Source of the DNA: a virus
DNA: 64,000 bases
Strand: one strand, 5' to 3'
IMG/VR virus record: IMGVR_UViG_3300028138_000003
Span: 429 to 64,428 of that record
The first letter of the stretch is position 1. The number at the start of each line of letters is the position of its first letter. Under the pieces are notes generated by a model. That model saw only the letters and a program-made list of their open reading frames with translations. It did not search any database and was not told where the DNA came from. A program made the position numbers and the translations under genes. Positions 1 through 64,000 of this stretch are shown here, piece after piece.

Positions 1-397
1 GGAGGCGTAAGCAGCGCTCGCCGACATCTCGACGTTGATCACGCGCTGGTCGCTGAACTCCTTCAGCAGCGTTCCGTCGTTGCCCCCGATCTCGACCACG
101 GTGCTTTCATTGTCGAGAGCCAATCGCGAGATCATGTCGCAGGCGTACTTCACCGCGTTTCTGACCGTGCCAGGAACACTGCCTGAGAAGAACGGATAGT
201 CCGAGCCGAACAGCTCATCGTGCGGCACGTCGTAGTCAAGCTGCAGCAGATTGCAGTGGCGGCACAGCACGAGCCGCAGCGGATACTCCCGACGACCTAT
301 GCTGATGGGGTTGTCCAGTAACGCGTTACTGGCTGGCTGCCTGCCTAGGTTCAGGACCTCGGTGAGCCCGCATGCATTGCAGGCCCGGCAGTGGATG
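1..397 (-). CDS. NDP-hexose C-methyltransferase (TylCIII-like), N-terminal portion; its 3' part runs off the window start
   Basis: GTG start at 397 overlaps the upstream stop (GTGA). The translation VKRIHCRACNACGLTEVLNLGRQPASNALLDNP...LCRHCNLL matches the putative zinc-binding domain of C-methyltransferases (Methyltransf_13-type; recalled pattern CxxC...LG.QP.SNA). It is followed by SAM motif I (VVEIGGNDGTLL). The frame remains open to base 1. Confidence 0.6.
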
Positions 398-401
398 CGT
401 T

Positions 402-701
402 TCACGTGGGCTCCCGGGGCTCTAGGCACATGGAAAGAGGCACGTCGAATCGCGCACGCGCCAGCTCTCTGTGAAGGATCGCGCGCGTCTCGCACTCGGC
501 GAACAGCATGCGTACGACCGCGGCTGCGGAGACCTCCGACACGTGCTTGACCACTTCCGCTTTGTTGTGCGTGAAGTCGACCTCGTCTATGTGCACGCGC
601 GTGAAGACCTGCCCCTTGGCGAAGGTCTCAAGCACGCGCAGCAGTTCCTTGTTGATGGCCTCAAGAGCGGAGATCTCGGATTTGCAGTATGGGCAGTTCA
701 T
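402..701 (-). CDS. hypothetical 99-aa protein (N-terminal CPYC motif)
   Basis: ATG at 701 overlaps the stop of the upstream methyltransferase (ATGA). The product begins MNCPYCKSEISALEAINKELL. Its stop at 402 is followed by the GTG start of the next gene. Confidence 0.45.
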   Translation of the reverse strand: MNCPYCKSEISALEAINKELLRVLETFAKGQVFTRVHIDEVDFTHNKAEVVKHVSEVSAAAVVRMLFAECETRAILHRELARARFDVPLSMCLEPREPT

Positions 702-1264
702 TTGAGCTTCTTGAATGCGAAGAAGAGGGAGTACTCGTCGTTCTGGTCGCAGACCTGATAGTCCACGAGATCCCAGTTCCACGCCGTCTTGGCCATAGCC
801 TCGACGACGCGATCGTAGTTGACGTTCCACAGCTGGCGCGGGTGCGCATCCGGCGCTGCGGGAATGCCGCGCTCGGGCTCGGCGCACTTGGGGTACTGCT
901 TCTCGTCGGGCAGGTAGAGCACGACGTGGGCGTTCGTCTTGATCACGCGCATCCAGTTGCGCAGCGCCTCGGGCACCTGCTTGTACGGGAAGTACTGCAG
1001 CAGGTAGGAGGAGTAGGCGTAGTCCCACTGACCGGCGGAGAACGCCGCTAGCTCCACGGCGTCGATCTGGACGTTCGGGGTGACTGGGAGGCCCATCTCG
1101 CCGTCCCGCCCATTATCTACGCCGCAGACGAACTCGGTTTCGAAGAGCCGCTGGGCTCCGCAGCCTATGTCTAGGCCTCGGCCGGCGGTATAGGGTACGG
1201 CACGCCAGCGCGTCTTGGCCGTCTCATTGACGTTTACGATCGGAAACGCTGGGTTGCGCGCCAT
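698..1264 (-). CDS. class I SAM-dependent methyltransferase (possible sugar O-/N-methyltransferase)
   Basis: Motif I is present (RGLDIGCGAQRLFETEF). The ATG at 1264 has an AGGAAG RBS 6 nt upstream. An alternative TTG start lies at 1291. Confidence 0.6.
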   Translation of the reverse strand: MARNPAFPIVNVNETAKTRWRAVPYTAGRGLDIGCGAQRLFETEFVCGVDNGRDGEMGLPVTPNVQIDAVELAAFSAGQWDYAYSSYLLQYFPYKQVPEALRNWMRVIKTNAHVVLYLPDEKQYPKCAEPERGIPAAPDAHPRQLWNVNYDRVVEAMAKTAWNWDLVDYQVCDQNDEYSLFFAFKKLK

Positions 1265-1300: not shown

Positions 1301-1331
1301 GGCAAAAGAAAAGGGGCCACAAGGGCCCCTT
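1301..1331 (-). terminator. rho-independent terminator downstream of the fibre-like gene (minus strand)
   Basis: Perfect 8-bp GC-rich stem AAGGGGCC / GGCCCCTT (1311-1318 and 1324-1331) with a 5-nt loop. On the minus strand it is followed by TTCTTTTGCC (1301-1310). Confidence 0.7.
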
Positions 1332-1362: not shown

Positions 1363-2028
1363 TTACCGGCTGAACGATCCGCCCGGGGTCCAAGTGTACT
1401 CGATTTCCACTGCGTACTGCGCCAGCGTATCGGTTCCACGCGAGACGACGAGAACGTCGTTCGGTCCTACGGTGAGACCACCGTTCGGGCCAGAGGGGAA
1501 CACGTAGTTGCCCTGCGTGTTGGTGCCGGCAGGAGCCGTCACGATCACGGTGCAGGTTCCGCCAACCAGCGGGATCACGGTGGGGTTGTAGGCCACCTGA
1601 GTTCCGAGGCCAACGAACTGCGTGCCGGTGGGTCCAACGTAGCTGCCGGTCAGGGTCCCGACGACGTTGGTGTAGATGCAGAACTGCACCTTGTTGATGC
1701 CGGTGCCGAGGTTCGTCCCGTTGCCGACGGTTACCGCAGTCGCGGTGGCAGTTCCGAAGACCTGCGCGTTGTACGACTGGAGGGTAAGACCGATGAAGTC
1801 AGCAGCCGTGGGGGCCACGAGCGGGATCACGGTGATCGAACGAACCTGCTTGCCCATGAGTCCGCCGCAGAGCGCGGCGTTCGGGCTTCCGCCGTTGTTC
1901 GTCGCGGAGCCGAGAGCTCCGAGAACGAATACGGCAACCTGCGGATCCGGATACTGCTCGTCGTATGCGAACGATCGTCCGCCGCCCGGGAGCAGAAGGG
2001 GTGAATTGACTGACGGTTGGTTAGCCAT
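1363..2028 (-). CDS. Gly/Thr-rich beta-structure (tail-fibre-like) protein, 221 aa
   Basis: The composition resembles fibre and adhesin proteins (GTATATAVTVGNGTNLGTG..., TVIPLVGGTCTVIVTAPAGTNTQGNY). It is a monocistronic unit with its own strong terminator and sits among the glycosylation genes. Confidence 0.5.
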   Translation of the reverse strand: MANQPSVNSPLLLPGGGRSFAYDEQYPDPQVAVFVLGALGSATNNGGSPNAALCGGLMGKQVRSITVIPLVAPTAADFIGLTLQSYNAQVFGTATATAVTVGNGTNLGTGINKVQFCIYTNVVGTLTGSYVGPTGTQFVGLGTQVAYNPTVIPLVGGTCTVIVTAPAGTNTQGNYVFPSGPNGGLTVGPNDVLVVSRGTDTLAQYAVEIEYTWTPGGSFSR

Positions 2029-2175: not shown

Positions 2176-2391
2176 TCACTTACCGGCGGGGCCGGGGACG
2201 CATCCCTCCGCCCCGTGGACGACCCCGTCATTCGTGGCCCAGTAGTTCGGCCACACGATCCAACCGTGGGGGCAAACGCTGTTCCGGCCGACCCGCTCCA
2301 TATAGCCGGGCTCGGGAGTGACGCAGTTGTTCGGTCGTATGCGCTGCGGGCCGAGATAAGAGGTCGGCTCAATCCTGATCTTCGCTTTCAT
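2176..2391 (-). CDS. hypothetical small Cys-containing protein, 71 aa
   Basis: GGAG RBS lies 8 nt before the ATG at 2391. An ATGA overlap joins it to the stop of the glycosyltransferase gene. Confidence 0.4.
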   Translation of the reverse strand: MKAKIRIEPTSYLGPQRIRPNNCVTPEPGYMERVGRNSVCPHGWIVWPNYWATNDGVVHGAEGCVPGPAGK

Positions 2392-3389
2392 CTGGTCAGC
2401 TCCTTGATTGCTTTGGCAGCCTCGATACACAGGGTCAGGGCGTCCTGCGCACGATAATTGAAGGCCTCCACGCCTCCCGGGAAGACCGAGAGGTTGTAGC
2501 CGCGCAGGCAGCAGTACATGGCGAACATGGACGTGGTCAGCAGCATCGTGTGGAGCCCGGGCGCCTCCACGGCGTCAGTGGCCTCTTCGATCATGGTGTT
2601 GAGCCACTCGATCTGGTTGAGGAAGTCCCGCTCCTTGCACTGGAGCGCTGCGGGGCTGAAGTGCTTGCGGCCGTATTCCGTCATGTTGGAACCAGGCACA
2701 GGCGCCCGCATCACGAGCAGTGGGCGCGGGTCGAACAGGATCGAGCCCTTGACCGCAGCGTGCGCCACGACCATGTGATCCCAGCCGGCGCACATGTGGC
2801 GCACTGGCACCTGCCGGCGGATCTCTTCGTTCCACAGGCCGAATAGCGGCGTGCAGTCGATGCCGCTGATGATCCACTGGGGCACGAAGGGCAGCGGCAT
2901 GTTGCCTGCGGATTGCAGGTAGTTGGCGTACTGCCCGACGAACTGGTCGTCCTCGTTAACCTGCGCCGTGTGCGTGTAGACGAGTGCCGGCTTGTTGCCG
3001 GCCTTGCGCTCGTTGTCCAAGCGGCTCACGAGGGTCGCAAGATGCTCGGAGTTGGGCCAGTAGTCGTGCCCGCCCAGCGTGATGCTGTAATCGACAGGCA
3101 GCGAGGAGATGTATTCCCAGCCAAACTTCATGGCGGGAATGCCAGCGAGGCCCTGCGGCATCGCAACGAACACCACCTTGCCGGGATTCGACTCCACGTA
3201 GTTGAGCGCGATCTGATCCGCTCCGTCGAGGCTGTGGTTATCGAAGATGTAGAGCGTGAAGTCTTTGTAGCTCTGGTTGAGCACGGACTCGATCGCCTTC
3301 GCAATGTGCTTGGCGTTGCCGTAGTTGTTGATCCAGACAGCTACCTCAGACACGAGTCTTCTCCCTTCCGCGACCGAAGTTACCGCCAA
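2388..3389 (-). CDS. family 2 glycosyltransferase (GT-A fold)
   Basis: The N-terminal GT2 signature is present (VWINNYGNAKHIAKAIESVLNQSYKDFTLYIFDNHSLDG, DxD-type). There is no C-terminal TM segment. An alternative GTG start at 3353 has a GGGAGA RBS. Confidence 0.75.
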   Translation of the reverse strand: MAVTSVAEGRRLVSEVAVWINNYGNAKHIAKAIESVLNQSYKDFTLYIFDNHSLDGADQIALNYVESNPGKVVFVAMPQGLAGIPAMKFGWEYISSLPVDYSITLGGHDYWPNSEHLATLVSRLDNERKAGNKPALVYTHTAQVNEDDQFVGQYANYLQSAGNMPLPFVPQWIISGIDCTPLFGLWNEEIRRQVPVRHMCAGWDHMVVAHAAVKGSILFDPRPLLVMRAPVPGSNMTEYGRKHFSPAALQCKERDFLNQIEWLNTMIEEATDAVEAPGLHTMLLTTSMFAMYCCLRGYNLSVFPGGVEAFNYRAQDALTLCIEAAKAIKELTR

Positions 3390-49526: not shown

Positions 49527-51618
49527 GGTGCATCTCTATTGCTAGGGGGAAGCCCTCGGCCCAATCCGGTACTGCGCACATGACCTGCTCTACGCTCTGG
49601 TCGGAGAGAATGCCCTCATGGTACTCCAAGACCGGCTCATCGTGCACGTGCATCACGATCGGAGCCTTGAGCATGTCGAACCGCAGCATGGCGTCGGCGA
49701 GGAGGTCGCGGCAGCCCGCCTGCGTCTCGTTCTCGCAGGTCTTGCCCCCGTAGGTGGCCGTGTCGCCGTAGAGCCGGGTGTCCGTGTCGACGCCACGGTA
49801 GTGCAGCGCGTTGTCCCTGATGTACGGCTTGAAGTAGCGGACCTTGCGGCCCGATGGCAAGCGCATGATCAGGAACTGGCCCTCGACCTTGAACATGAGG
49901 CGCTTCTGCGCCACGTCGTAAATCTTCCCGGGGTTGGCCACGGCGTTGAGGCCGGCTTCCTTGAGCTGCCACCAGCCGCGGACGATCTTGGGGTGCGCCT
50001 CGCGCCACATCAGCTTGACGGCCTCGCAGGCGACCCACGTGTTCGCTGGCAGGTCACCAACGCGGCCCTGCTGCGCCATGAATTCGTAGTTGTGGAGGGC
50101 TTGGTCTTGGATGGACCGCGGCGCCTGTTCGAAGGCCGGGATCAGGTCCTCCAGATTGAGGCCATATGTCTTCGCCATCTTGACGAGGGCTCCGACGCCG
50201 CCTTCGTAGCCCATGGAGAGGTCGAGTACCTTTCCAATAAGGAGCTGAAGCTTGGTGATGGTAGTAGGGTCAACGCCGAAAGCGCGGCCATATACCACAG
50301 CGTACGGCTTTGGTCCCGTGCCGGCGTCGAACTGGCGATACGCATCGAGCTTCCACTCCTCCCCAAACATCCAAGCGTTCCAGCGGGACTCGATTCCCGA
50401 GAAGTCGGGGAACACGAGCTCGTGGCCTTCTTTTGCAATCAGGAGACCCCGCATGCAGGATGCAAACACTTTCATCGGATCGACGCCAGGATATAGCGCA
50501 CGAATCCAATCGAGATCGCGGGCGCGGCACGCCTCGATCGCCGCATCCGGGTCGGGGATCACAGACCGGAACATGTTGTGGAGCTGGACGATCACCGCTG
50601 ACCAGCGGCCGGTGCCTGCGGCTTGGTAGAGGAACATCCCGCGGATGCGGCCGTCCTTGCAGACGGCGTTGCGCATGGCCGTAACCTTGCTAACGGCTTT
50701 CATGCCGTATGTGCCATAAAGTGCGATTATGCTCTTTACTGCATGCGGCACGGCCGGGTCCGCCTGCATGCGGCGGACGGTATCTGCTTGCAGGTTCTCC
50801 AGCTGCGGGTAGCCGTTGGCGCGGATCCACGCCGCGAGCTGCGCGTGCTGGGTGGGCCCGATGCCAGTCAGCTCCTTGCACTTCGCCTTGAGCTGCTCCT
50901 TGTACGTGTCGATCAGATGCTCGAGGTCGGCTAGTGCGTCGAGATCGATTTGCACGCCTCGATCGTTGATAGCCTGGTCGAGTTCCCAGATTCGCTGCTC
51001 TTTTGGCGACATCTCGGGCAGGACTGCGTCCACGCAGCGCTCCGCACGAACGTCGTCAGCACAGTACGGGACAAGTGTAAGGAAGCGCTCTCGCTCCTCA
51101 ACAATGGTCGGACGCGTGCCGTCAGCTCGCGGCTTACACAGGTAACGCATGGCGTTGACGCCGGCGACCCGCTTCTTGATCGGGGTGTTGAGCTCATTAG
51201 CGGCATCCTCCAGCCCCCCGGGTAGCGAGCAATAGCGTGAGCGCGCCATGGAGCAGCGCATCTGTTTGATTTCGAGCTTGGGGAAACCGTACCTCTGGCC
51301 TGCGGGGCCATTGAGCACGGCGCGCTCGAAGGCGGCGTTCCAGCAGTGGACCTCTTTGCCTTCCTGTATCCACGCGGCCAGCTCGGTAGGGATGCCCGCG
51401 CTACCGCACAGGATCTGGCCATCGACATCGGCCACCTCGAAAGCGAAGCTGGCATCGGCGGACGGGATCCACGTGGATACGGGGCCGTCATCGATCGCCC
51501 AGCAGACGCACAGCAGGTCCGTGCTCTCGTCCTCGGCGTAGCGGTAGAGGCCCGCCGTCTTGAGGTTGACCCGGCTGAACGTCTCGATGTCGAGGGTGAG
51601 CTTCACCGTGTACTCCAC
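49504..51618 (-). CDS. family A DNA polymerase with 3'-5' exonuclease domain
   Basis: Exo I motif LTLDIETFS. Polymerase motifs A, B and C are present (...RGMFLYQAAGTGRWS..., KVLDLSMGYEGG, HVHDE). Confidence 0.85.
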   Translation of the reverse strand: MEYTVKLTLDIETFSRVNLKTAGLYRYAEDESTDLLCVCWAIDDGPVSTWIPSADASFAFEVADVDGQILCGSAGIPTELAAWIQEGKEVHCWNAAFERAVLNGPAGQRYGFPKLEIKQMRCSMARSRYCSLPGGLEDAANELNTPIKKRVAGVNAMRYLCKPRADGTRPTIVEERERFLTLVPYCADDVRAERCVDAVLPEMSPKEQRIWELDQAINDRGVQIDLDALADLEHLIDTYKEQLKAKCKELTGIGPTQHAQLAAWIRANGYPQLENLQADTVRRMQADPAVPHAVKSIIALYGTYGMKAVSKVTAMRNAVCKDGRIRGMFLYQAAGTGRWSAVIVQLHNMFRSVIPDPDAAIEACRARDLDWIRALYPGVDPMKVFASCMRGLLIAKEGHELVFPDFSGIESRWNAWMFGEEWKLDAYRQFDAGTGPKPYAVVYGRAFGVDPTTITKLQLLIGKVLDLSMGYEGGVGALVKMAKTYGLNLEDLIPAFEQAPRSIQDQALHNYEFMAQQGRVGDLPANTWVACEAVKLMWREAHPKIVRGWWQLKEAGLNAVANPGKIYDVAQKRLMFKVEGQFLIMRLPSGRKVRYFKPYIRDNALHYRGVDTDTRLYGDTATYGGKTCENETQAGCRDLLADAMLRFDMLKAPIVMHVHDEPVLEYHEGILSDQSVEQVMCAVPDWAEGFPLAIEMHRGKRYRK

Positions 51619-52562: not shown

Positions 52563-53714
52563 CTACTCCTCGTCGTCTAGGTTGGTAAAATCAACTTGGG
52601 ACAAATTGGTCATTGCTGGTCTTGGATCTTCGGGGCTTGCAAGTTTCGGTCGGCCGGGAGGCTTCACGACAAGATCTCCTAAAATCTTCTTGAAGCGCGG
52701 CTTGCCCATCAGTTTCTCAAGCTGGCTCGGCGAACGCAACTTCTTTTCGAAGGCATCGTCCGGGCTCACGCGCTTGACCACTGCGTCCTTGTCGGAGAAC
52801 GCGCGGTTGCTGCGCCCCTCGACGAGCTTCCACCCGCCGACGTCTTTGCCGGATACGAGATCGGCAATCACGCCTTTCTCGAAATCCGCCAGCCAGGATT
52901 TAATGACGCCCAGCTTGGGCAGGATCGCAGCCTTCTCGGCGGGATCGAGAATCTGGCTCTTGGGTTCGGGTGCGTCAAGGTTCCCGAAGGCCACCGTGAG
53001 CCCGACGTTCGCGCGCACAGCGCAGTCCCGCTTGAACTTGCAGAACTGGCACCACTCCCCGGCTTGGAATTCCGTTCCGGCTTTGATCTTCTCCAGCACC
53101 GGGACCAGCGTGGCCCGGGCCCAGCGGCGGACGTCGGCGGCGCTGATGCGCCATGCGTCCTTGTGGTCCAGCCGCGGCTGGTGAATACCCAGCTCGAATT
53201 CTTGGATGTCTTCCATCCAGTGCGTGCCGAGCACGCCGAGCGCCTGCATGAGCAGCTGCTCGTTGTCCTTCGCCCAGACTTGCACGCCCTTGCCGAACTT
53301 GAGATCGCGCAGCGTGCAGAGGCCGTCCTTGATCATGCCGCGGTCGACCCAGCCGAAGCCGCCGGGCACCCACTCCTCGTAGGAGACCTTGATTTCGGAG
53401 AACGACACGTCCGCCGGCACCTCGGCGCACCACTCAAGGTACTCATTTACGGCGCCAGCGAACTCCTCGGTCACCCCGAATTTGTGCTTGCCGACTACGA
53501 TGATGCGCCCGAGAAAGTCCATCGGGTGCATGTTGTGCTTGAAGCAGTGGTCGGCGAGCCAGTGGGCCGCGGATCCCTCCGCGGCAAACACCGACTCCTC
53601 GTCCGTCTTACCCTTACTGGCGTTGACGCTGCCCGGGCAGTTGATCCACCGCGGAGCCCCGGAGGGGCCCAGCGGGCTATGCTCGACCGGCTGCACTACG
53701 ATATCGTTGTTCAA
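52563..53714 (-). CDS. PD-(D/E)XK nuclease, DUF2800 / Cas4-like with Cys cluster
   Basis: N-terminus RWINCPGS and C-terminal CQFCKFKRDC are present. The arrangement DUF2800-SSB-polymerase is common in phage replication modules. Confidence 0.5.
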   Translation of the reverse strand: MNNDIVVQPVEHSPLGPSGAPRWINCPGSVNASKGKTDEESVFAAEGSAAHWLADHCFKHNMHPMDFLGRIIVVGKHKFGVTEEFAGAVNEYLEWCAEVPADVSFSEIKVSYEEWVPGGFGWVDRGMIKDGLCTLRDLKFGKGVQVWAKDNEQLLMQALGVLGTHWMEDIQEFELGIHQPRLDHKDAWRISAADVRRWARATLVPVLEKIKAGTEFQAGEWCQFCKFKRDCAVRANVGLTVAFGNLDAPEPKSQILDPAEKAAILPKLGVIKSWLADFEKGVIADLVSGKDVGGWKLVEGRSNRAFSDKDAVVKRVSPDDAFEKKLRSPSQLEKLMGKPRFKKILGDLVVKPPGRPKLASPEDPRPAMTNLSQVDFTNLDDEE

Positions 53715-54253
53715 GTCCAGTCCTTCCAGTTAACGAACTTGCCGGTTCCCTGCCGCCACGCGGTGCTGGTGTCGTCGAACGGATAGAAGCCCCACGAGCT
53801 TTGCTTCGGGCCCGTCAGCACGATCGTCCACCACGGCGCGTGCGCCCGACTGGCCCACCACCATTGCCGGCCCAGCACGAAGTGCTCGTAGTTCGCCGGC
53901 CGGTAGTGGAAGCGCCACGCAGTGACATTGCGCATGCACGGCCGGGCGGGCTTTCCCTTGTGATAGACGAGTTCAATGTACGAGGTCAGCGGGAATGTGA
54001 TGAACCACCACGGGTGCGTATGCGATGCGCGATCGTCATCGCCTCGCCAGAAGCGATGTAGGCGGAGAGTGTACCCAGCCACATACAGGATCCACCGATC
54101 CAGATACCGATCACCGTTGATGAGCACCGTGGATCGGTCGAAGCCAAATCGACGCCCCAGCACATCGAAGCCGACAAACCAGCCAACCGCCCCTCCTCTG
54201 CCGAAGGGGCTGTATATGTAGCTGGCATTGCGGATCAGCTTGCGGCGTTGCAT
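53711..54253 (-). CDS. hypothetical Trp-rich protein, 180 aa
   Basis: ATGA coupling. Unusual aromatic composition (QWWWASRAHAPWWT, HTHPWWF). Confidence 0.45.
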   Translation of the reverse strand: MQRRKLIRNASYIYSPFGRGGAVGWFVGFDVLGRRFGFDRSTVLINGDRYLDRWILYVAGYTLRLHRFWRGDDDRASHTHPWWFITFPLTSYIELVYHKGKPARPCMRNVTAWRFHYRPANYEHFVLGRQWWWASRAHAPWWTIVLTGPKQSSWGFYPFDDTSTAWRQGTGKFVNWKDWT

Positions 54254-54777: not shown

Positions 54778-55750
54778 TTACAGCCAGTGGGGGTTTTCTA
54801 GTGTCCATGTGACAGTCTTGAATAAGGCCTGCTGGAACGTCGCTGGCGGTCGCCAGCCCATGCGCGCAAGTTTGCTACCGTCGAGCGCGTAACGCAAGTC
54901 GTGCCCGGGCCGGTTGCCGTCCCCGGTCAGCTCGTACCGCAAGCCCTCGCTCATGATGAAAGCGATGCTCTTGGCCAGCTCGGCGTTGTCCACCTCGCGC
55001 TCGCCGACGATATTGTACTTGTCGCCGGGCACGCCATTCTGCAGCACGAACAGCACCGCGTCGGCCACAGCCTTGGCGTGAATGTAGAACCGCGAGCCGG
55101 CCTTCGTGCGCTCCGGGTTGGAGTGGATCTGCACCGTTTCGCCGTCGCGGATCTTGCGGATGGTGCTCGGGATGAACTTCTCGGGGTGCTGCCGCTCGCC
55201 CATGACATTCATGGTGTGCGTGATCAGCGCGGGCACGCCGTAGGTATTGTGGAACGCGATCGCGAGTTCCTCGCCTCCAGCCTTGCTAGCACTGTAGGGG
55301 TTAGTTGACTTGTATCGATCCCATTCTTTGTAAGCAACGCCCGGAGGAGCGCTGCCGAAGACCTCATCAGTAGAGAAGTAGAGAAGCCGCCCGCAGCCAA
55401 CTTGTCGAGCGTAGTTAAGTAGGTTGCAAGTGCCAACGACGTTCTCTTCGACAAACGAGAGCGGGTCCGCGATGCTGCGGTCGACGTGCGTCGCCGCCGC
55501 GAGGTGGATGATGTGGTCAAAGGGGCCTCCTAGCTGGCTGACGAGCTGCCCGTTGAGCGGTGCGCGCAGGTCGTGATAGAAGAAGCGGACGCGCGGGTTC
55601 TTTACCGCGCCAACCTCGGCCAGGCGATTCAGATTGCCGGAGATGTCGAGGCGGTCGATCAGCGTCAGGTCCCAGTCGGTGTAGTTGAGCAGCTCCTCGA
55701 CGAGGTGGTGCCCGATGAAGCCAGCGCCGCCGGTGATAAGGGCTTTCATG
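54778..55750 (-). CDS. NAD-dependent NDP-sugar 4,6-dehydratase (RmlB-like)
   Basis: The internal ATG at 55750 gives a 324-aa product. Motifs MKALITGGAGFIGHH, STDEVFG and YSASK are present (Rossmann GxxGxxG, catalytic YxxxK). Confidence 0.75.
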
Positions 55751-56147
55751 CTGTGTTCCTCTCCCGCTTCTCGATGAGCAGCTGCAGCTCCGCGCGCAGG
55801 CGCCAGATGGCCTTGGCCAAGTGGTAGGTTCCGTCGGTGTCCATGATCTGGCCCGTGCCGTGATCGAAGATATGCCGGAACGCTTTGTTCAGGTGGTCCG
55901 TGCTCTTCTCGCGGGCCCAGTGCATCTTCGTGCCGGGGTTGTGCTGCTTGTTGCCTTCCCATGCGACGCGCACCTCCTCGCGGAACGACAGCGGGAAGTA
56001 CCCGAACATGTAGTCCCACATGGGGAGCCGCTCTCGCTCCGTGGGCGGCTTGGCTGTCGCCGGCTGCAGCACTGGCGGCTCGGTGCGGATCACGTTGGGC
56101 ACCTCGTCGTAAGCGCAGTCCAAGCACTTGTGCTCGCTCACTGCTTG
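55746..56147 (-). CDS. hypothetical protein, 133 aa
   Basis: GTG start overlaps the upstream stop (GTGA). The product begins VSEHKCLDCAYDE. Confidence 0.35.
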   Translation of the reverse strand, partial: QAVSEHKCLDCAYDEVPNVIRTEPPVLQPATAKPPTERERLPMWDYMFGYFPLSFREEVRVAWEGNKQHNPGTKMHWAREKSTDHLNKAFRHIFDHGTGQIMDTDGTYHLAKAIWRLRAELQLLIEKRERNTA

Positions 56148-56416
56148 CGCTCCATGGTGTCCTCGCCATCGGAGTAGAAGATCTTTGGCGTCTTGGTCTC
56201 GCGCGTCAGAGCGGTCACCATGGCCTCCGCGAACACTCGAGCGATCGTCTCGGGGGTGTAGATCTTGCCGGTGCGCAGCAGCCCGCCGATGTACGCCCCC
56301 TCGGCCACGATGCAGGCGAACAGCAGTCGCGAGTCGTGGACGAGCGCTAGTGGGCCTAAGGCGGCGCCAACGGCATCGCTGCAAGCCAGCAGCGCGTCTT
56401 GCTCAATATTGCTCAC
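56138..56416 (-). CDS. hypothetical protein, 92 aa
   Basis: ORF-track call. ATGA overlap with the phosphoesterase gene stop. Confidence 0.35.
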   Translation of the reverse strand: MSNIEQDALLACSDAVGAALGPLALVHDSRLLFACIVAEGAYIGGLLRTGKIYTPETIARVFAEAMVTALTRETKTPKIFYSDGEDTMERKQ

Positions 56417-57981
56417 AGTCGGTACTCCCCATTGATGTAGTTGATCAGGGTTCGCTTGGAATTCGCGTAGGTCAGAATGTCGCTGTTCAGCCAGCTGCTG
56501 GGCCCGATATTGTAGCCGAGGCGCAGGAAGGTCGACGTGCCGGCACGGAACGCGCCCTCGTCGATCTCCGGCGAGTGGCTGTGCCCGGTGTTCGACTTGA
56601 CGCCAATCCGGCGCAGGTTGCGCACGGTGCCACGGCTGCCATTGGGCCCGTGGTGGCCGTGCATACCGTGCTCGATATTGCCGATCATGCAGCTCTCATC
56701 GTACTCCAGCACCTTCACGTTTTTGGTTTTCGCGAAGCGCTGCTTGGCCCAGTAGATGAAGGCATTGAGCCTCTCCGCTTGGAAACCGTTACCCCGTGCG
56801 GCCAATCGGGCCAGCGCGAGAGCAGTCTCAAGATAGAATTCACGGTCATTGCTTCCAACCATGCGCCAGTCATTAGACTCGATCCACCGCTGGAGGAAGT
56901 CGTTGTGGTTGGAGGGGACGATGACCGACGTGATGTCCGACGGCGTGCGGAGCGCGACGTGTTCGAACGAGTCCCAGACTTCTTGGCGGACACTTGATGC
57001 TCCTAAGGCCGATCGCTCGATCGGCGCAAACGGGTTCTTCACGAGGTGGTGGTTGAACGCGTAGCCGTCAGTCAGGTCGTGCCAGACGCGGTGCCGCGGG
57101 CGCAGCGCGTTCACAAGCTCGCCCTGCAGCCGGTCGACCACCGGGTCGATAGCGCGGACGTGCGTGTCGCCGTGCGTGATGCTCAGCGGGCGATCCGCGA
57201 TGTCGACGCCTTCCGGCGTGCACCGCATTTCGAGGTCGTAGAAAGAGCCCTCTTTATCGGCATTAATTTGTCGTAGATGGAAGATGTTTCCGCGAACTTC
57301 AACGACAGCAGCACCGAGGGTGTGGTGGAATTCTCCAAGCTTCCCCGCCTTGCTGTCAGTGTAATTCGGTACGGTGCATGCGCCCGTAGTGGTGAGGATT
57401 TTGGGAAGTCTTCCTTGCGGAGCAGCAATTGTGCGGAGCTGAAGCTTGGTGTGCCCCAGAATTCCAGATTCGCCGGCCGTGATAGCTTCAAAGCCAGAGA
57501 GAGGCTGACTTGCCGTGGGCTGCGTCTTGACGTCACCTATCACCTCCATATTCTTGCAGAGCTTGACACGCACGTTGCAGAGATCGGCATCGGGCACGTG
57601 CCACACGTCCTCATTCTCTTGGCTCTTCGTCCAGCGCGACGTCGGGTTCTTGTACCGCGTCGGGATAACCAGGAGCTCGGCGCTGCGGAAGTTGCAGTAC
57701 TGCCGGAGCGAGGCGTAGAAGCCCTTGTGTACCGGCGTAGCGTTCTGCGCGCAGGTCACCACGAACACCTCGGCCTTGCCGCGGGTGCGCTTGAAGATCG
57801 GCTGCTTGCCCTTGGTGCGGCCGGCGAAGTCGCGCACTTTCACGATGTTGCTGGTTTGCCGGGTGCTGTAGCACAGCTTACGATCGCCGCTACCCTCGCG
57901 GCAGCGCCATGCGGGCTTGCCGTCCGGGGACCAGCGCTGCATGGGCTTGCCGCACTTTGGACACTTCGGTCTAGTCTTCAC
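56413..57981 (-). CDS. calcineurin-like metallophosphoesterase with N-terminal zinc ribbon
   Basis: N-terminus CPKCGKP...CREG. Metallophosphoesterase motifs ITHGDTHV, SNHNDF, GMHGHHG and GHSHSPE are present. Confidence 0.55.
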   Translation of the reverse strand: MKTRPKCPKCGKPMQRWSPDGKPAWRCREGSGDRKLCYSTRQTSNIVKVRDFAGRTKGKQPIFKRTRGKAEVFVVTCAQNATPVHKGFYASLRQYCNFRSAELLVIPTRYKNPTSRWTKSQENEDVWHVPDADLCNVRVKLCKNMEVIGDVKTQPTASQPLSGFEAITAGESGILGHTKLQLRTIAAPQGRLPKILTTTGACTVPNYTDSKAGKLGEFHHTLGAAVVEVRGNIFHLRQINADKEGSFYDLEMRCTPEGVDIADRPLSITHGDTHVRAIDPVVDRLQGELVNALRPRHRVWHDLTDGYAFNHHLVKNPFAPIERSALGASSVRQEVWDSFEHVALRTPSDITSVIVPSNHNDFLQRWIESNDWRMVGSNDREFYLETALALARLAARGNGFQAERLNAFIYWAKQRFAKTKNVKVLEYDESCMIGNIEHGMHGHHGPNGSRGTVRNLRRIGVKSNTGHSHSPEIDEGAFRAGTSTFLRLGYNIGPSSWLNSDILTYANSKRTLINYINGEYRL

Positions 57982-58250: not shown

Positions 58251-58523
58251 ATGAAGGGTCTTTTCTTTATCGCGATCATTCCGCAGGGCAACCGTGCCAA
58301 CATCCAGACCGGGATCGTCAAGGACAAGCTCGGCGAGACTCATCTGCTTCTCGAATTCGATGGCAACAAGTTCAAGTACAAGCGCACGGTCCCCGTGGCG
58401 CAGCTTGAGGCCTTCTCGTTCTTCGACACGCAGGCTGAGCAGCGTCTCGCTGTCGATGAGCTGCTGGCGCAGAACCAGGCCGTGGCCGACGGGGGCATCG
58501 AACTCACCGACCTTACTCAGTAA
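58251..58523 (+). CDS. hypothetical protein, 90 aa, encoded antisense to the replication operon
   Basis: AGGAGA RBS lies 6 nt upstream. It has its own promoter. Its 3' end converges on the primase gene stop, overlapping by about 10 nt. Confidence 0.5.
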   Translation: MKGLFFIAIIPQGNRANIQTGIVKDKLGETHLLLEFDGNKFKYKRTVPVAQLEAFSFFDTQAEQRLAVDELLAQNQAVADGGIELTDLTQ

Positions 58524-61002
58524 CGTCGCTGTCGCGGGCAAGGCGTATTCCGAGGAACCCTCGATACGTCTTGCCCTTCTCCGTCCACCTGCCTTCACCT
58601 GTCGTGGGCAGGGCCTCTCTGACATTCTTCATGAACTTCCCCCGGGCGAATGCCTTGTGCCCGTTCTCGTGCACCCAGCCCTTGTAGGCTTGGTAGATAG
58701 ACTCTGTGGAGTCACTGAACGGCAGCTTGCCGGCGGGATCCTTCACGATCCGCTCCCGCACGAACTGCGCCAGCACGTCCTGCTCGGCGCGCAGGCGCGC
58801 GGTGTCCTTCAGCACGCTCGGCGGCGCGTTCAGCTCGGCGCGGTACCACTCGCGGGCCCCCTCGACTAGCCAGCGCAGGATGCCCGGGGCCTCGGCCTTG
58901 AGGGTGTCCTCCAGCTTGGCATCGCGGAGCTTCTGGTACTCGCCGGTGGCCACCTGCGCCGCGGTGCCGTAGCGCACGCGGTACCGCAGCAGCAGCATGC
59001 GGCGCCACATGCCGCCGTCGTCCCCGATGATCGTGGGCTCGTGGTTGGTGAAGATCTGCAGCTTGTGGGTAGGGTTGAACTCAAAGAACTCCTTGTGCAG
59101 GAACCGGGCGGAGAGCTTGTCGCCCCCGGTGAGCTCCTTGAGCTGGGCTTGGTCGAACTCCTCGTTCTGCTTGGTCTCGTTCAGGGTGATCATACGCTTG
59201 CCCACGAGGGCCGCCACGTCGTTCCGGATCTCTCCCTTGCCCGTGAGCAGGGACCGGGGCCCCATGGCCGCATAGGAGCCCAGAACGTGCCCTAGAACCC
59301 TCATCAGCGTGGACTTGCCGTTGCCGCCCTTGCCGACGTGGAACACCAGCGCCTGCTCGCGGCTCTCGCCGGTGACGCAGTAGCCCAGCCAGCGGCGTAC
59401 GAAGGCCACCACGTCGGGCTTGTCTTCGAATATCTCCGAGACGAAGGCTTCGAACCGGTCGCACTTTGCGGCCGGATCATAGTCGGTAGGCGCGCACGCC
59501 GTAATCAGGTCTGCCGGGTCGTGCGGCTTGGTCTCGCTGGTCTCGAGGTTGATCGTGCCGTTGCGGGCGTTGAAGAGCCGGCGATCGGTGTTCAGCAGCT
59601 CGCCGTCGACGTTCAGCAGCTTGCGCAGCATCTCGCGGCAGGCATCGAGGGCGGGCTTGTTGGAGCACTTGGTGGCCCACTTCAGCAGCCCCTCGACCTC
59701 GCCCTGCTGCTCGTCGGTCATCGTCGGGCCGTACTTGTCCGCGAGCGACACGGCCTCGGCTTTGATCATCAGAGGCAGTTTGGTAATTGTACGCCAGACT
59801 TCCCCTTCGTGAGTATCCAGCTTCCAATGTGATTCGTGCCAGATATAGAAGTTCCCCGCCACTGAAATGATGCGCTTACCGAAGGCTCGCTGGATTCGGC
59901 GAGCATTTTCGAGATCGGTACACGGGCCAACTCCTCGATCAATTGTGCTCGGGAGGCATTCCGCTGTTTCTGGAGCACTTCCGTCAGCGACATCTTCGAT
60001 GGCTGTAAATCCAACATTGAAGATTCCGTCGAACTCGGGGAGTCCGCTGCAGAAGTCGTGCATGGCCCGCGTGCTGGGGCGATCGCCAATTGGAGTATCT
60101 GCATCAAATTCATCAAGACGGCCAAAGCGGTGGAGTCGAACGAGATCGTAAGCGTTGTGTTGCCCGCGTGCTGGATCTGTGTCGTGGTGGGAGTGGAGTT
60201 TGGTGTCGTCGTCGTAGATGACGGCGCCATCCGCCCGGGAACCACCGGTGTAGGTCCATCGATCTTCGGAGGAGCCAGGCCCATACGGGAGGTCAAATCG
60301 CGCAATAGCCTCGGTAATTCGGAACGTCCGACAGAAATCTCCCACAAACCCGGGTTTATCAAGCGGGGATCCGACATCGTCCGTATTGTAAAGCTCGTCG
60401 TGATCGGCACGTCGGGGCCATTGGGACTTGTCTTTCCAGTCACTGTACTCTCCTAGGACTTTGTCGACGTCGAGGTACGGGCTCGTCGTGTCTTGCCAGC
60501 TTTGGAACGGCGCGTTGGTGCTCGCTGTGGGCCGGTACATGAACTGGCACGGCGTGTGGGACTCTCTGGCGGCGAGTTCAATTCCAGCACGGGCCGCAAC
60601 TCGACGAGAAACTGCTTGAAATTCCTCCGATGTAGCAGGACGTGAAAGTGGTATCCAAAGCCGGAGGCGTGGGCTAGCAGGAGTGTGTGACCAAGTGGTA
60701 TACGCGAGAAAGGCGGTGCCTTTGACAGCTCCAATAATCCGGTCGTGATCATCTGGGGTGATTTGGTCATAGTCCAGACTCAGGAAGTGGCGGGCCACGA
60801 AGTTTTCGGAATGCCTGTAGGCAGGCTTGAAGTGAACGCCGCAGACCCATCCGGCGCTCGCTTTGTCTTCGACGATCGGGACCTTGGTGATGATGGCCTT
60901 CACGAATTCCGCGAAGGTCCCCTCCCACTCCTTTGTCACCTCGGCAGGGTGCAGCTTGCCGATGCTGGCGCGCAGCTTCACTCCTGCTCCCTCAGTGGGC
61001 AC
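58513..61002 (-). CDS. primase-polymerase / SF3 helicase (P4-alpha-like primase-helicase)
   Basis: GTG start. N-terminal prim-pol region. C-terminal D5_N/helicase region with Walker A GKGGNGKST. Confidence 0.7.
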   Translation of the reverse strand: MPTEGAGVKLRASIGKLHPAEVTKEWEGTFAEFVKAIITKVPIVEDKASAGWVCGVHFKPAYRHSENFVARHFLSLDYDQITPDDHDRIIGAVKGTAFLAYTTWSHTPASPRLRLWIPLSRPATSEEFQAVSRRVAARAGIELAARESHTPCQFMYRPTASTNAPFQSWQDTTSPYLDVDKVLGEYSDWKDKSQWPRRADHDELYNTDDVGSPLDKPGFVGDFCRTFRITEAIARFDLPYGPGSSEDRWTYTGGSRADGAVIYDDDTKLHSHHDTDPARGQHNAYDLVRLHRFGRLDEFDADTPIGDRPSTRAMHDFCSGLPEFDGIFNVGFTAIEDVADGSAPETAECLPSTIDRGVGPCTDLENARRIQRAFGKRIISVAGNFYIWHESHWKLDTHEGEVWRTITKLPLMIKAEAVSLADKYGPTMTDEQQGEVEGLLKWATKCSNKPALDACREMLRKLLNVDGELLNTDRRLFNARNGTINLETSETKPHDPADLITACAPTDYDPAAKCDRFEAFVSEIFEDKPDVVAFVRRWLGYCVTGESREQALVFHVGKGGNGKSTLMRVLGHVLGSYAAMGPRSLLTGKGEIRNDVAALVGKRMITLNETKQNEEFDQAQLKELTGGDKLSARFLHKEFFEFNPTHKLQIFTNHEPTIIGDDGGMWRRMLLLRYRVRYGTAAQVATGEYQKLRDAKLEDTLKAEAPGILRWLVEGAREWYRAELNAPPSVLKDTARLRAEQDVLAQFVRERIVKDPAGKLPFSDSTESIYQAYKGWVHENGHKAFARGKFMKNVREALPTTGEGRWTEKGKTYRGFLGIRLARDSDVTE

Positions 61003-61483: not shown

Positions 61484-61852
61484 TCATTTCCCGCACGGAT
61501 TGATTGACGGCTCGAGGCGCACGCAGTCTGCCGGCGCGTCCGAGGACGAGGCTTCGAAGATCCTCCCGCCCTGCTCCGACAGGCACCTCACACGGTGCGC
61601 GGTGCGCGGGTACAGCACGAGCGTGGCGCCGGGGCCAAAGGTCTTGCGGCCCTTGGTGTGCTTGTCGTCGAGCATCTCCCACGTGATCTCAAACTCGCCC
61701 TCCACGACGCAGAAGGTCTCGTGCTTGTGCTCGTGGTAGTGCTTCGATGACGTGTGCGGGCCGGTGTAGACCAGCATCTTTGCGCAGTATTCGTCATCGT
61801 ACAGGATGATTTCGTAGCCCCACATCTTGGGGACTTTCTTCCACGGTCTCAT
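61484..61852 (-). CDS. cupin-fold sugar isomerase/epimerase candidate (FdtA / WxcM-like)
   Basis: Cupin motif SKHYHEHKHETFCVVEG. About 120 aa. AAGGAG RBS. ATGA-coupled. Confidence 0.55.
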   Translation of the reverse strand: MRPWKKVPKMWGYEIILYDDEYCAKMLVYTGPHTSSKHYHEHKHETFCVVEGEFEITWEMLDDKHTKGRKTFGPGATLVLYPRTAHRVRCLSEQGGRIFEASSSDAPADCVRLEPSINPCGK

Positions 61853-62055
61853 GTCCGCTCCTTACTTCGTTGAATGAGCTGCTGGGCCAGCTGCTTGGTT
61901 GTCTCTTGGATTGCCGGGTTCTGATCTGCAACGTGCGTCGACTTGAACTCCCGCCAAGCCTCGATGAGGCTCTCCGCCCCGTAGCCGTGCTTCGGGATCC
62001 ACACCCTAAGATAGCTCAGGAAGACGACGATGTCGTCGTTGCAGAACTGTCTCAT
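61849..62055 (-). CDS. hypothetical protein, 68 aa
   Basis: ATGA coupling at both ends. Confidence 0.4.
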   Translation of the reverse strand: MRQFCNDDIVVFLSYLRVWIPKHGYGAESLIEAWREFKSTHVADQNPAIQETTKQLAQQLIQRSKERT

Positions 62056-62193
62056 TTCGCCCGGATCGCGTCGATGGCGCACCATACACCTACTGCGGCG
62101 CAGACTGCAGCCATTACGTGGTTCTGGTGGTATATGATCACCCCTGTGGCGAAGTTCATCATGGCAAGCGCTTTATCAGTTACGCGAGTCATT
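62052..62193 (-). CDS. small membrane protein, 46 aa
   Basis: The product is MTRVTDKALAMMNFATGVIIYHQNHVMAAVCAAVGVWCAIDAIRAK. TAATG coupling. Confidence 0.35.
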
Positions 62194-62407
62194 AGTGCAT
62201 CCTCGGTAGCAATTGTCCAGTTCCAAGGCACCGCGGGCAGCCGCTGCCCTTGCGCACCGTGGTCTTCTCGGCGATGCCCTCCTCGTCGCGCGTGCGCCGT
62301 GTGAGCGGCGCGCCCTCTGAGTCGAGCATGGAGTCGCATGTGGCCGCAGTGTATCCGATGCCTTGGCACTCGGGACACTCGGTGTGGGAGGCTTTCGTGG
62401 TTCTCAT
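62192..62407 (-). CDS. Cys-rich protein, 71 aa
   Basis: CPECQG and CPRCLG motifs (zinc-ribbon-like). ATGA overlap with the GT9 gene stop. Confidence 0.4.
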   Translation of the reverse strand: MRTTKASHTECPECQGIGYTAATCDSMLDSEGAPLTRRTRDEEGIAEKTTVRKGSGCPRCLGTGQLLPRMH

Positions 62408-63504
62408 GCCGGCGGACTCCATACAGGGGCCTTCCCCGTGTTCATACATTCTTGCAGGGCCGACCACACCCACTCGGGCTTGGTCTCAGTGGTGCACTGC
62501 GCCACCTGCGTCTGCTTGTTCTGCAGGCAGCCCTCGAAACCAGGCAGCAGCTTGTGGCATGCTGGGACTTCGTTAGCGCCGCGCCCGGGGCAGTGCGTGT
62601 TCGGCGCCCAGATGCTCGTGGTGTTGACCCAGTCACGGGTCAGGTTCTCGATCGTGCTGTGGGTCAGCAGGCAGATCTTCGGCATGGGGTAGAACGCAGA
62701 GGCCGACATCACGCCGGTCTCGGGCCCTACGACCACGTCGGCCGACTCCATCATGAGCATCACCTGCCGCATGGTGTACTTGCCCGCAGTCAGCCACATG
62801 CGTGGCCGGCCATCGAACCCCTGTTCTAACGGCGTGCAGGTCGCGTCGCCCACAGTCAGGACGCCCCACGACGGGTAGTGCCGCAGCACGTGCTCCCACA
62901 CCTTGTTGGCGTGCGGGTAGACCTTGTGCCCTCGGCTGCTGCCGGCGAGGTTCCACAGGATGTACTTCTCGATGCCGGCTTTCTTCATCTTGGCCAGCTC
63001 GCGCTGCCGCCACTCCTGCTCCTCGTCTGTCGAGTAGAACTTGAAGCTCGGCACGTATGCGCATTCCGCCAAGCGGTGCTGGTGCTCGAGGTAGTTGACA
63101 TTCATGAGCGCGTGGCGCGCCTTAGCCGGCCACACGAAGCGGATGTTGCCCGGCATGGCCAGCAGGTTGGCCTCCACCGACTCGGTGAGGTTCACCCACT
63201 TGTCGAATTTCTTGCCGCCCGGGGCGCCGTAGTTCTCAAACCAAGGCCAGAAGAGGCCGAGGTGCGCCATGGGGACTTGGTTGATCGTCTGCACGACGAG
63301 CCGGTCGATCGACGGATCGTGGATCACGATCTCGTGGCTCGGGTGCTGCGACACGAGGGTCACGTGGTACCCGTCTTTCTTTAGCTGCGTGATGATGCTC
63401 ATCGCCTGCGCGACGTCGCCGAAGGCACCGTAGCGCACGACGCACGCTGTGGGCAGCCCCTGCGGGTTTTTCTTTTCTTTCCAGCTGAATCGTTGCGTAC
63501 TCAT
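62404..63504 (-). CDS. GT-B glycosyltransferase, family 9-like (heptosyltransferase-type)
   Basis: The C-terminal region MESADVVVGPETGVMSASAFYPMPKICLLTHST resembles the GT9 donor-binding motif (D-SG..HLA.A.G.P...LFG). TGATG-coupled to the C-methyltransferase gene. Confidence 0.6.
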   Translation of the reverse strand: MSTQRFSWKEKKNPQGLPTACVVRYGAFGDVAQAMSIITQLKKDGYHVTLVSQHPSHEIVIHDPSIDRLVVQTINQVPMAHLGLFWPWFENYGAPGGKKFDKWVNLTESVEANLLAMPGNIRFVWPAKARHALMNVNYLEHQHRLAECAYVPSFKFYSTDEEQEWRQRELAKMKKAGIEKYILWNLAGSSRGHKVYPHANKVWEHVLRHYPSWGVLTVGDATCTPLEQGFDGRPRMWLTAGKYTMRQVMLMMESADVVVGPETGVMSASAFYPMPKICLLTHSTIENLTRDWVNTTSIWAPNTHCPGRGANEVPACHKLLPGFEGCLQNKQTQVAQCTTETKPEWVWSALQECMNTGKAPVWSPPA

Positions 63505-64000
63505 CAGAACACCTTCAGCTCAGGGATTGCGGTTACGAACTGTCCGCCCCAGCCGCGGATGCAGTGGAGCTTGTCGACGATGTTGTCCTTCCAGTTCCAC
63601 GGCAGGATCACCACATATGCCGGCTGGCGCACGAGTAACTCCGCTTCCGAGATGATCGGAATGTTGCTGCCCGGGAGGAACTTGCCGATCTTGGCCGGCG
63701 TGCTATCGCCCACCGCGAGGATCTCCTCCGCGCTGACGTGCAGCCAGTTGAGGAACGTGTTGCCCTTGGCGGCGGCGCCGTAGGCGTACACGGGCGCGTG
63801 CTGCGAGAGGAACGCTTCGAAGTCCCCGCGGATGCTCCATGCGCGCTCGCGGAACTTCCAGTATGTCTCAAGCTTGTCGAGCCCGGCTTCGCGCTCGCGC
63901 GCGAGGAAGTCCGCGATGCGAATGCTCGGGATCATCGCCCCGGTGTGGGCCACCATGATCTGCAGCGAGCCGCCATGGATCGGCAGCTCCTCCACGCCGT
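63504..64000 (-). CDS. NDP-hexose C-methyltransferase, C-terminal portion (partial; its 5' part lies off the window end)
   Basis: HGGSLQI follows the end of the methyltransferase domain. The Methyltransf_14-type C-terminal domain is present (YAYGAAAKGNTFLNW...IPIISEAELLVRQPAYVVILPWNWKDNI). The frame is open to the window edge. Confidence 0.65.
   Translation of the reverse strand, partial: GVEELPIHGGSLQIMVAHTGAMIPSIRIADFLAREREAGLDKLETYWKFRERAWSIRGDFEAFLSQHAPVYAYGAAAKGNTFLNWLHVSAEEILAVGDSTPAKIGKFLPGSNIPIISEAELLVRQPAYVVILPWNWKDNIVDKLHCIRGWGGQFVTAIPELKVF

Follow-up and report, generated by a model that had tools for sequence, protein, structure and literature searches.

To our knowledge, virion glycosylation has been established only in a few actinobacterial phages. 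In mycobacteriophages, phage-encoded glycosyltransferases and methyltransferases tied to the structural genes reportedly decorate capsid and tail proteins, as Freeman et al. 2023 are said to have found. The dedicated protein glycosyltransferases TibC and Aah are likewise encoded adjacent to their own acceptors. Giant viruses encode nucleotide-sugar enzymes (4,6-dehydratases and methyltransferases) together with glycosyltransferases that glycosylate their own capsid (PMC9614988), and phage clusters in which a GT-B glycosyltransferase is accompanied by a sugar kinase and a nucleotidyltransferase place mono- and di-heptose on 5-hydroxymethylcytosine (5hmC) (bioRxiv 10.1101/2023.12.21.572611). Here we describe a gene cluster in a 64,000-nt stretch of phage DNA (IMG/VR record IMGVR_UViG_3300028138_000003, positions 429 to 64,428; hereafter the window), which is a real sugar-modifying gene set of an uncultivated 64-kb phage. 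It looks like two sugar-supply branches, one for a heptose and one for a C-methylated deoxysugar, that lead into two transferases, rather than one linear pathway. Its best reading, which we hold at slightly under an even chance, is the glycosylation of virion head proteins. The enzymes and the candidate acceptor are encoded as follows:

1..405, minus strand: N-terminal 135 residues of the sugar C-methyltransferase (C-MT), with a CxxC...CxxC zinc domain (L002 8802-9206 corresponds to window 405-1)
698..1264, minus strand: MT188, class-I S-adenosylmethionine (SAM) methyltransferase (Methyltransf_23/11)
1363..2028, minus strand: p221, jelly-roll protein, acidic and rich in G/T/S, homologous to f5, which adjoins the capsid in relatives
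2388..3353, minus strand: GT2 (GT-A) glycosyltransferase, 321 residues (Glycos_transf_2, 45.8 bits)
54778..55752, minus strand: RmlB-like NDP-glucose 4,6-dehydratase, 324 residues (Epimerase 169 bits, GDP_Man_Dehyd 168 bits)
61484..61852, minus strand: small metal-site cupin, 122 residues (Cupin_2 30 bits; phrog_7851 68 bits)
62404..63504, minus strand: GT9-like GT-B glycosyltransferase, 366 residues, with a C-terminal four-Cys cluster (PF01075 20.8 bits, against a cut-off of 22)
63504..64000, minus strand: C-terminal domain of C-MT, residues ~236-399 (164 residues; Methyltransf_14 153 bits), cut by the window end

An earlier note on this DNA had singled out four open reading frames (ORFs), namely the cupin, the GT9-like transferase, C-MT and the dehydratase, and all four are present on the minus strand where it had placed them. 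The ORFs are real genes. The three that lie in 61484-64000, together with MT188 and GT2, have a GC content at third codon positions (GC3) of 0.85-0.89 (the dehydratase lies outside that filter), and identical proteins recur in metagenomes, the GT9-like sequence being the same on 18 independent contigs. By alignment of the source contigs with the window (BLAST), positions 64000 and 1 are only 298 nt apart, so the window represents a nearly complete genome, circular or permuted, of ~64.3 kb. The C-MT gene spans this junction, and ~99 of its codons (298 nt) are absent from the window.

As judged from sequence comparison, the conserved core of the system is the class-I methyltransferase together with the GT9-like enzyme, and not the deoxysugar genes. 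A homologue of MT188 is fused to GT9 or encoded directly upstream of it in 74 of 82 related viral loci, with the pair usually found 1-4 kb past the major capsid gene. The GT9-like protein itself has 1594 metagenomic homologues, many of which are Methyltransf_11-GT9 fusions and many of which carry PF01075, and a relative is encoded on 255 IMG/VR contigs. The AlphaFold (AF2) model of the window protein (pLDDT 92.6) placed GT9 structures at the top of a Foldseek search (3tov, WaaF and WaaC; entries 3tov, 1psw, 2h1h; E 1e-10 to 1e-8), and by this modelled fold the protein is a GT-B/GT9 transferase, as the earlier note had proposed. Residues D30, K194, E262-T263-G264, C305, C316, C326 and C337 are invariant in the family; by comparison with WaaC, the G-D, K and E-T-G motifs are those typical of heptosyltransferases. 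We predict that the protein is a heptosyltransferase. Enzymes of the GT9 family use ADP-heptose, and this one is expected to use the same donor rather than a C-methyl deoxysugar.

The GT9-like enzyme resembles the LPS (lipopolysaccharide) heptosyltransferases WaaC and WaaF and the protein-modifying TibC and Aah in its GT-B fold, its N-terminal G-D, its central K and an E-T-G where the D-T-G signature stands, and in that ADP-heptose synthesis genes adjoin its gene in relatives. It differs from them in being only 12-14% identical, in a Pfam score just below the cut-off, and in having an additional invariant four-Cys cluster, which may or may not be equivalent to the iron-finger Cys motif of TibC, a SAM methyltransferase as partner or fusion, and capsid genes as neighbours. 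Searches of cultured phages by tblastn with GT9 (two divergent queries) and with p221 gave no match, PDB sequence searches with GT9, GT2, MT188 and p180 (a small protein described below) were uninformative, and we found no description of phage heptosyltransferases near capsid genes in the literature searched.

The genomic setting of this core would fit a role at the virion. Most loci encoding a methyltransferase and GT9 lie inside a P22-like structural operon, with the typical order portal, scaffold, major capsid, f5, f9, f8, f6, GT2 (in some), methyltransferase-GT9, f1, a P22 gp10-like protein and ejection proteins. In several lineages GT9 is found 0.9-4 kb downstream of the capsid gene, and some have a stand-alone GT9 0.9 kb after it. 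The capsid and portal proteins of the window are 54% and 38% identical, respectively, to their counterparts in GT9-bearing loci; the nearest cultured capsids, those of Vibrio crassostreae podophages, are 50% identical and belong to phages that lack GT9 and p221. Glycosyltransferase and methyltransferase genes thus lie in or beside the structural module for the family as a whole, while the cluster of the window has moved out together with p221. This arrangement recalls the mycobacteriophages, where phage-encoded glycosyltransferases and methyltransferases are also associated with structural genes; there the enzymes are of GT-A types, whereas here we find a GT9-like enzyme, a Gram-negative host, a predicted heptose and branched-chain sugar and phage-encoded donor synthesis.

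The leading candidate for the acceptor is p221 (alternatively a head decoration protein), because it moved out of the structural operon together with the enzymes: in all eight members of the window clade (defined below) it was relocated along with GT2, the methyltransferase and GT9. The gene pair would then resemble tibC-tibA and aah-aidA, in which the enzyme gene stands beside the gene of its acceptor. The jelly-roll fold of p221 has weak matches to cement and turret proteins; a BFVD fold search returned uncharacterised proteins only. The ~130-residue capsid-adjacent protein of the lineages in which a small gene separates capsid and GT9 showed no detectable kinship with f5/p221 (hhalign probability <1%). 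A homologue of p221, P0138 (72% identity), is deposited in a Steroidobacteraceae metagenome-assembled genome.

A loop of the major capsid protein (gene at 26660-27616) may also serve as acceptor. We compared the segment between the conserved EQTN and FFG motifs in 70 distinct capsid sequences, which represent few independent lineages: its length tracks the presence of GT9 downstream. Of 60 capsids followed by GT9, 53 have a loop of 22-30 residues that is rich in Thr, Ser and Gly; of 10 for which GT9 is absent from the next 5 kb or more, 6 have a loop of 13-15 residues. In the remaining four of these ten the loop measures 19-24 residues; these capsids are apparently those of window-clade phages, where GT9 lies elsewhere. 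The window loop itself has 19 residues (27350-27420, plus strand; capsid residues ~235-255) and is Thr/Ser/Gly-rich.

We favour a virion-protein target because the genes usually stand among late structural genes, p221 migrated along with the enzymes, the phages encode part of the donor supply, and sugar O- and C-methyltransferases recur. Several points weigh against it. The assignment of the target rests on guilt by association; the loop comparison draws on few lineages, and seven GT9-positive capsids carry a short loop. In the window the cluster sits between the lysis genes and the replication genes, outside the structural operon, and this phage encodes no reductase, nucleotidyltransferase, kinase or adenylyltransferase. 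GT9 enzymes are known to act on the LPS inner core and on autotransporters, and the fold of the GT9-like enzyme is nearer to WaaC/WaaF than to the protein-modifying TibC, which ranks 11th (E 7e-6), below both.

This last similarity to LPS heptosyltransferases, in motifs as well as fold, is what one would see if GT9 and GT2 instead placed methylated heptose and deoxysugar on the LPS core or O-antigen of the host, blocking superinfection or the sticking of phages to debris. A Gram-negative host, read from the nested spanin-like genes at 3682-4249, and the position of the cluster beside lysis genes and a beta-helix lipoprotein would fit such envelope remodelling as well. Most relatives, however, carry these genes in the late head and tail operon by the capsid gene, at a stage when new LPS could no longer get to the surface; no gene of integrase size was seen, making classic seroconversion unlikely; GT2 has no obvious membrane segment, as judged by reading its sequence only; and the co-migration of p221 would be left unexplained. 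We consider envelope remodelling unlikely, although it keeps some weight.

Modification of DNA, with heptose and/or the C-methyl sugar attached to a modified base (for example a 5-hydroxymethyl pyrimidine) for restriction evasion, is suggested by other features: the cluster abuts replication genes, a C5 cytosine methyltransferase is encoded 3 kb upstream of it, the GT9-like protein is mildly basic (isoelectric point (pI) 8.6), and a basic protein, p180, labelled a dioxygenase in PHROGs, is a possible oxidase. Like the clusters that build heptose on 5hmC, the window combines phage glycosyltransferases with sugar-activation genes, a predicted heptose product and a nearby C5 methyltransferase (bioRxiv 10.1101/2023.12.21.572611); unlike them, it has no 5mYOX or ThyS that we found, its GT-B enzyme is not T4 beta-GT-like and its usual context is the capsid operon. 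The DNA-modifying GT-B enzymes of those clusters resemble T4 beta-GT, BshA and MshA (bioRxiv 10.1101/2023.12.21.572611), whereas the 50 best fold matches of the GT9-like protein, led by GT9 enzymes, do not include T4 beta-GT. Neither a TET/JBP (5mYOX) enzyme nor a ThyS-like hydroxymethylase was detected among the window ORFs scanned with Pfam, a scan that small or unrecognised enzymes could escape. The C5 methyltransferase is found in just one of six related loci, the methyltransferase-GT9 family usually lies beside the capsid gene, and GT2 is acidic (pI 5.6) and matches TarP, one of the TarP/JGT-type GT-A enzymes that would mark such clusters, only at E 0.013. Taken together, a DNA target appears quite improbable; if it were nevertheless the case, the cluster would add a new glycosyltransferase family and new sugars to DNA hypermodification.

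The C5 methyltransferase and p180 have features of their own. The C5 cytosine DNA methyltransferase (6402-7370, minus strand) is laid out in two overlapping frames, with the catalytic motifs in one and the C-terminal WPTP-like repeats in the other. Because this layout is conserved in the relative L174 (63-75% amino-acid identity), it reflects either an enzyme divided into two subunits or programmed frameshifting, and not an assembly error. The p180 protein (53711-54253, minus strand; pI 10.4) carries an HTHPWW motif and matches 'cysteine dioxygenase' in PHROGs with 83 bits, has no Pfam or PDB relatives, and is kept in four relatives, beside replication genes.

How the donor sugars arise is best seen by comparing related phages. 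The window clade was counted as eight members, of which the window is one; seven relatives (L009, L010, L011, L172, L173, L174 and the window's own contigs) have the relocated layout in common. The cluster genes are distributed among them as follows:

8/8 members: GT2, p221, MT188, GT9 and the cupin
7/8 members: C-MT (absent in L011, where methyltransferase and GT9 are fused as in the outgroups)
5/8 members: heptose-7-phosphate kinase (HldE-domain-I-like) and adenylyltransferase (HldE-domain-II-like)
3/8 members: RmlB-like gene
2/8 members: TylF-like sugar O-methyltransferase (also in 16 more distant loci; beside GT9 in 18 loci)

On this comparison, C-MT, the RmlB-like enzyme, GT2, the TylF-like O-methyltransferase and the heptose-activation genes are variable accessories, as one would see if interchangeable tailoring cassettes surrounded a glycosyltransferase core that is itself conserved. 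Homing-endonuclease genes (HNH or endonuclease VII) occur in the cluster of four relatives (L010 9553-10011, L011 2610-3107, L009 4474-4890 and L172 11279-11620), and their position beside the variable cassettes suggests a route of cassette exchange.

The cupin is probably, from its sequence and neighbours, a sugar-phosphate isomerase of the heptose branch. We assign it to this branch because the genes on either side of its orthologues encode a heptose kinase and an adenylyltransferase: in L173 and L174 it lies between the two (63% and 46% identity), directly after GT9, the kinases scoring 222-230 bits on TIGR02198 and the adenylyltransferase 73 bits on TIGR02199, and in L009 and L011 the kinase gene abuts it. 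A classic 3His-1Glu metal site is made up of the invariant residues H38, H40, E45 and H86. In the PDB, a profile of 12 cupin sequences matched (E<=10) phosphomannose isomerase (PMI), the cupin of CapF, and isomerases acting on D-lyxose/mannose and L-ribose.

Homologues of 28-34% identity also occur in 35 cyanomyophage records, near a PfkB kinase, a CTP_transf-like enzyme, a short-chain dehydrogenase/reductase (SDR) and a HAD-like protein; no SIS isomerase is present in those neighbourhoods. The cyanomyophage heptose gene set (T4-like clusters 304/306/307/308; S-SM2, S-CAM3, P-SSM2) thus shares with our clade a homologous cupin beside a kinase, a putative adenylyltransferase and an SDR, and differs in belonging to cyanobacterial myoviruses that lack GT9, C-MT and p221. 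In both phage groups the isomerisation of sedoheptulose-7-phosphate is the only step towards ADP-heptose that has no candidate enzyme, and a metal cupin resembling PMI could naturally fill that role. Given its weak matches to CapF and WbuC, the cupin may alternatively act as an epimerase of NDP-sugars, a further point that counts against our scheme.

Cyanophage annotations of these genes look wrong. The proteins labelled 'phosphoheptose isomerase' in S-CAM3/S-SM2 (L089 6682-7002; L090 4032-4343 and 5673-6002) are ~105 residues long, carry a DxDxT motif with weak HAD phosphatase matches and gave no match to a SIS domain, and the adjoining cupin is annotated as 'cysteine dioxygenase' or 'nucleotidyltransferase'.

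The earlier note had viewed the cupin as FdtA-like and the cluster as a complete-looking linear deoxysugar route, and neither view was sustained. Only Cupin_2 matched the cupin in Pfam, with no FdtA match, and the PDB profile search at E<=10 returned metal cupins alone, with no FdtA, QdtA, 3,4-ketoisomerase or RmlC; we therefore rejected an FdtA/QdtA-like identity. A single NDP-6-deoxyhexose route, in which the dehydratase is followed by the cupin as 3,4-ketoisomerase and by C-MT, and a single C-methyl sugar serves both transferases, can draw on the solid RmlB-like and C-MT assignments, on the translational coupling of the cupin to the C-MT and GT9 genes, and on the weak matches of the cupin to WbuC and CapF, which act on 4-keto sugars. 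Against it, no similarity to FdtA, QdtA or RmlC appeared at any threshold tried, the cupin has a full metal-binding motif and heptose kinase and adenylyltransferase genes flank it in relatives, and GT9 enzymes are established users of ADP-heptose. The distribution of the genes argues the same way: the cupin is retained in L011, which lacks both C-MT and the RmlB-like gene, C-MT is present without a phage RmlB in four relatives, and the cupin, found throughout the clade, does not track the dehydratase (3/8) or C-MT (7/8). We regard the linear route as very unlikely.

The deoxysugar branch of the two-branch scheme comprises enzymes whose assignments are solid. The RmlB-like SDR scores 255 bits on TIGR01181, below the equivalog cut-off of 365 and yet its best family by far, and its best PDB match is DesIV (1r66, 202 bits), to which its GGAGFIG (GxxGxxG), STDEVFG (with the Asp-Glu dyad, TDEV) and YSASK (YxxxK) motifs align, so that the RmlB-like identity proposed in the earlier note was supported. 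We also considered a heptose 4,6-dehydratase and rejected it, the score against 7us5 being only 65 bits compared with about 200 for DesIV.

By sequence, C-MT is a sugar C-methyltransferase of the TylC3/TcaB9/MtmC type. The full product in the source contigs has 399 residues with Methyltransf_13, 23 and 14, and matches MtmC (180 bits), KijD1 (176) and TcaB9 (164) over residues 5-397; the YHEH active-site stretch is conserved, and the four-Cys zinc domain (PF08421 on the 399-residue product) reads CRACNAC...CRHCN. The family and the presence of a zinc domain were therefore as first proposed; the zinc domain, however, sits at window 1-405 and not within 61484-64000. The enzyme shares with TylC3, TcaB9, KijD1 and MtmC full-length similarity (160-180 bits), the same three domains (four-Cys zinc, SAM and Methyltransf_14) and YHEH, at about 30-35% identity; those enzymes come from antibiotic or O-antigen clusters, whereas this one is encoded by a phage. 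Among 50,697 phage records, just 8 carry a homologue. In bacteria, relatives reach no more than 42% identity and are spread over many phyla, and in the contexts of 80 bacterial homologues an RmlB-like gene above 150 bits appeared in only 2, giving no pointer to host or substrate. We found no description of phage sugar C-methyltransferases in the literature searched.

A route through the RmlB-like enzyme and C-MT to an NDP-3-C-methyl-6-deoxyhexose is plausible, and in the four relatives that have C-MT and lack a phage RmlB the host may supply the 4-keto sugar. MtmC is described as a bifunctional methyltransferase and 4-ketoreductase, and by analogy such bifunctionality could explain the missing reductase gene. 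The more likely transferase for the C-methyl deoxysugar is GT2, which is kept in all eight clade members, stands beside methyltransferase-GT9 in 10 further loci and weakly matches SpsA and TarP.

From the family assignments, gene linkage and comparative distribution observed above, we infer donor sugars, an order of steps and an acceptor as follows. In the heptose branch, the metal cupin would probably isomerise sedoheptulose-7-phosphate to heptose-7-phosphate; ADP-heptose would then be completed by host enzymes in the window phage and by the phage HldE-like kinase and adenylyltransferase in relatives, the heptose would be transferred by the GT9-like enzyme, and the product would be methylated by its constant partner MT188. 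In the other branch, the RmlB-like dehydratase would yield NDP-4-keto-6-deoxyglucose, which the TylC3/MtmC-type enzyme would C-methylate, probably at C3. Reduction of the 4-keto group would fall to C-MT itself, as in MtmC, or to a host reductase, and the resulting C-methyl sugar would probably be transferred by GT2. The acceptor would most likely be a virion head protein, p221 and/or the Thr/Ser/Gly-rich loop of the major capsid protein, leaving the head coated in a methylated glycan.

In its fullest form, our proposal is that in a large group of uncultivated podophages, which live in soil and sea and infect Gram-negative bacteria, a GT9-type protein heptosyltransferase fused to a methyltransferase coats the head with a phage-made glycan. 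One clade would add a 3-C-methyl-6-deoxyhexose to it, and the phages would provide part of their ADP-heptose themselves, with the cupin replacing GmhA; we offer this as a tentative possibility. The parts belong to known enzyme families, and no description of their combination was found in the literature searched. The combination joins a methyltransferase-GT9 core by capsid genes, a proposed cupin-based phage heptose activation and a viral sugar C-methyltransferase. Capsid glycosylation in giant viruses offers a likeness in its virus-encoded sugar pathway and glycosyltransferases, and differs in involving eukaryotic viruses, unrelated capsids and different enzymes (PMC9614988).

Were the heads indeed coated, virion glycosylation would be seen for the first time beyond the actinophages, and a branched-chain sugar for the first time in a virus. 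Its occurrence in hundreds of environmental phage lineages would mean that the chemistry of phage surfaces has been underestimated in its variety, with a bearing on immune recognition, grazing, particle adsorption and phage therapy. GT9 enzymes would gain a new class of acceptor and sugar C-methyltransferases would extend past antibiotic and O-antigen pathways to viruses. The small cupin would become a candidate non-SIS sedoheptulose-7-phosphate isomerase, which would explain a long-misannotated cyanophage gene.

The cluster is transcribed in the order GT2, p71a, p221, a terminator-like hairpin, MT188, p99, C-MT, GT9, p71b, p46, p68 and cupin, followed downstream by primase and replication genes and, ~6 kb further, by the RmlB-like gene. 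The remaining features are:

402..701, minus strand: p99, between MT188 and C-MT, ATGA-coupled; called gene (L002 8506-8805), no family match
1311..1331, minus strand: terminator-like hairpin (L002 7876-7896), 8-bp stem with 6 G-C pairs and a T-run; consensus match only
2176..2391, minus strand: p71a, small ORF between GT2 and p221; called gene, no family match
61849..62055, minus strand: p68, small ORF, called gene in L002, ATGA-coupled on both sides; no Pfam or PHROG match
62052..62192, minus strand: p46, small ORF with TAATG and ATGA junctions
62192..62407, minus strand: p71b, small protein carrying a pair of zinc-ribbon motifs, CxxCxGxG (weak DnaJ_CXXCXGXG match), its gene in ATGA overlap with the GT9 stop

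From C-MT through the cupin, genes overlap by 1 or 4 nt, the stop/start junctions read in the DNA being TGATG (C-MT/GT9), ATGA (GT9/p71b), TAATG (p71b/p46), ATGA (p46/p68) and ATGA (p68/cupin). The coupled operon described in the earlier note is therefore borne out, as is its position on the same strand as the replication genes (primase, 58513-61002; DNA polymerase, 49504-51618). The hairpin lies 32 nt past the stop codon of p221; a sigma-70 promoter scan across the cluster found none. Megablast of window 54-64 kb against the 50,697 phage records gave no match.

Some neighbouring genes deserve mention. Between the primase and the RmlB-like gene, a 522-residue protein (56413-57981, minus strand) matches phrog_1745 'DNA transfer protein' with 470 bits and is possibly T5 A1-like. 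Directly after the 2405-residue ORF that closes the structural module, a His_Phos_1 protein (45622-46218, plus strand; 88 bits) of the histidine-phosphatase family could be a sugar-phosphate phosphatase, though nothing ties it to the cluster. In the lysis region, nested Rz/Rz1-like spanin genes (3682-4249, minus strand) were identified by reading. Just upstream of them, a 431-residue protein (4496-5791, minus strand) that bears the signal of a lipoprotein (LAAC) and matches NosD/beta-helix families faintly may be an exported polysaccharide-degrading enzyme. The spanin genes, a GC content of 62% and the presence of P0138 in the Steroidobacteraceae genome together hint at a soil gammaproteobacterial host.

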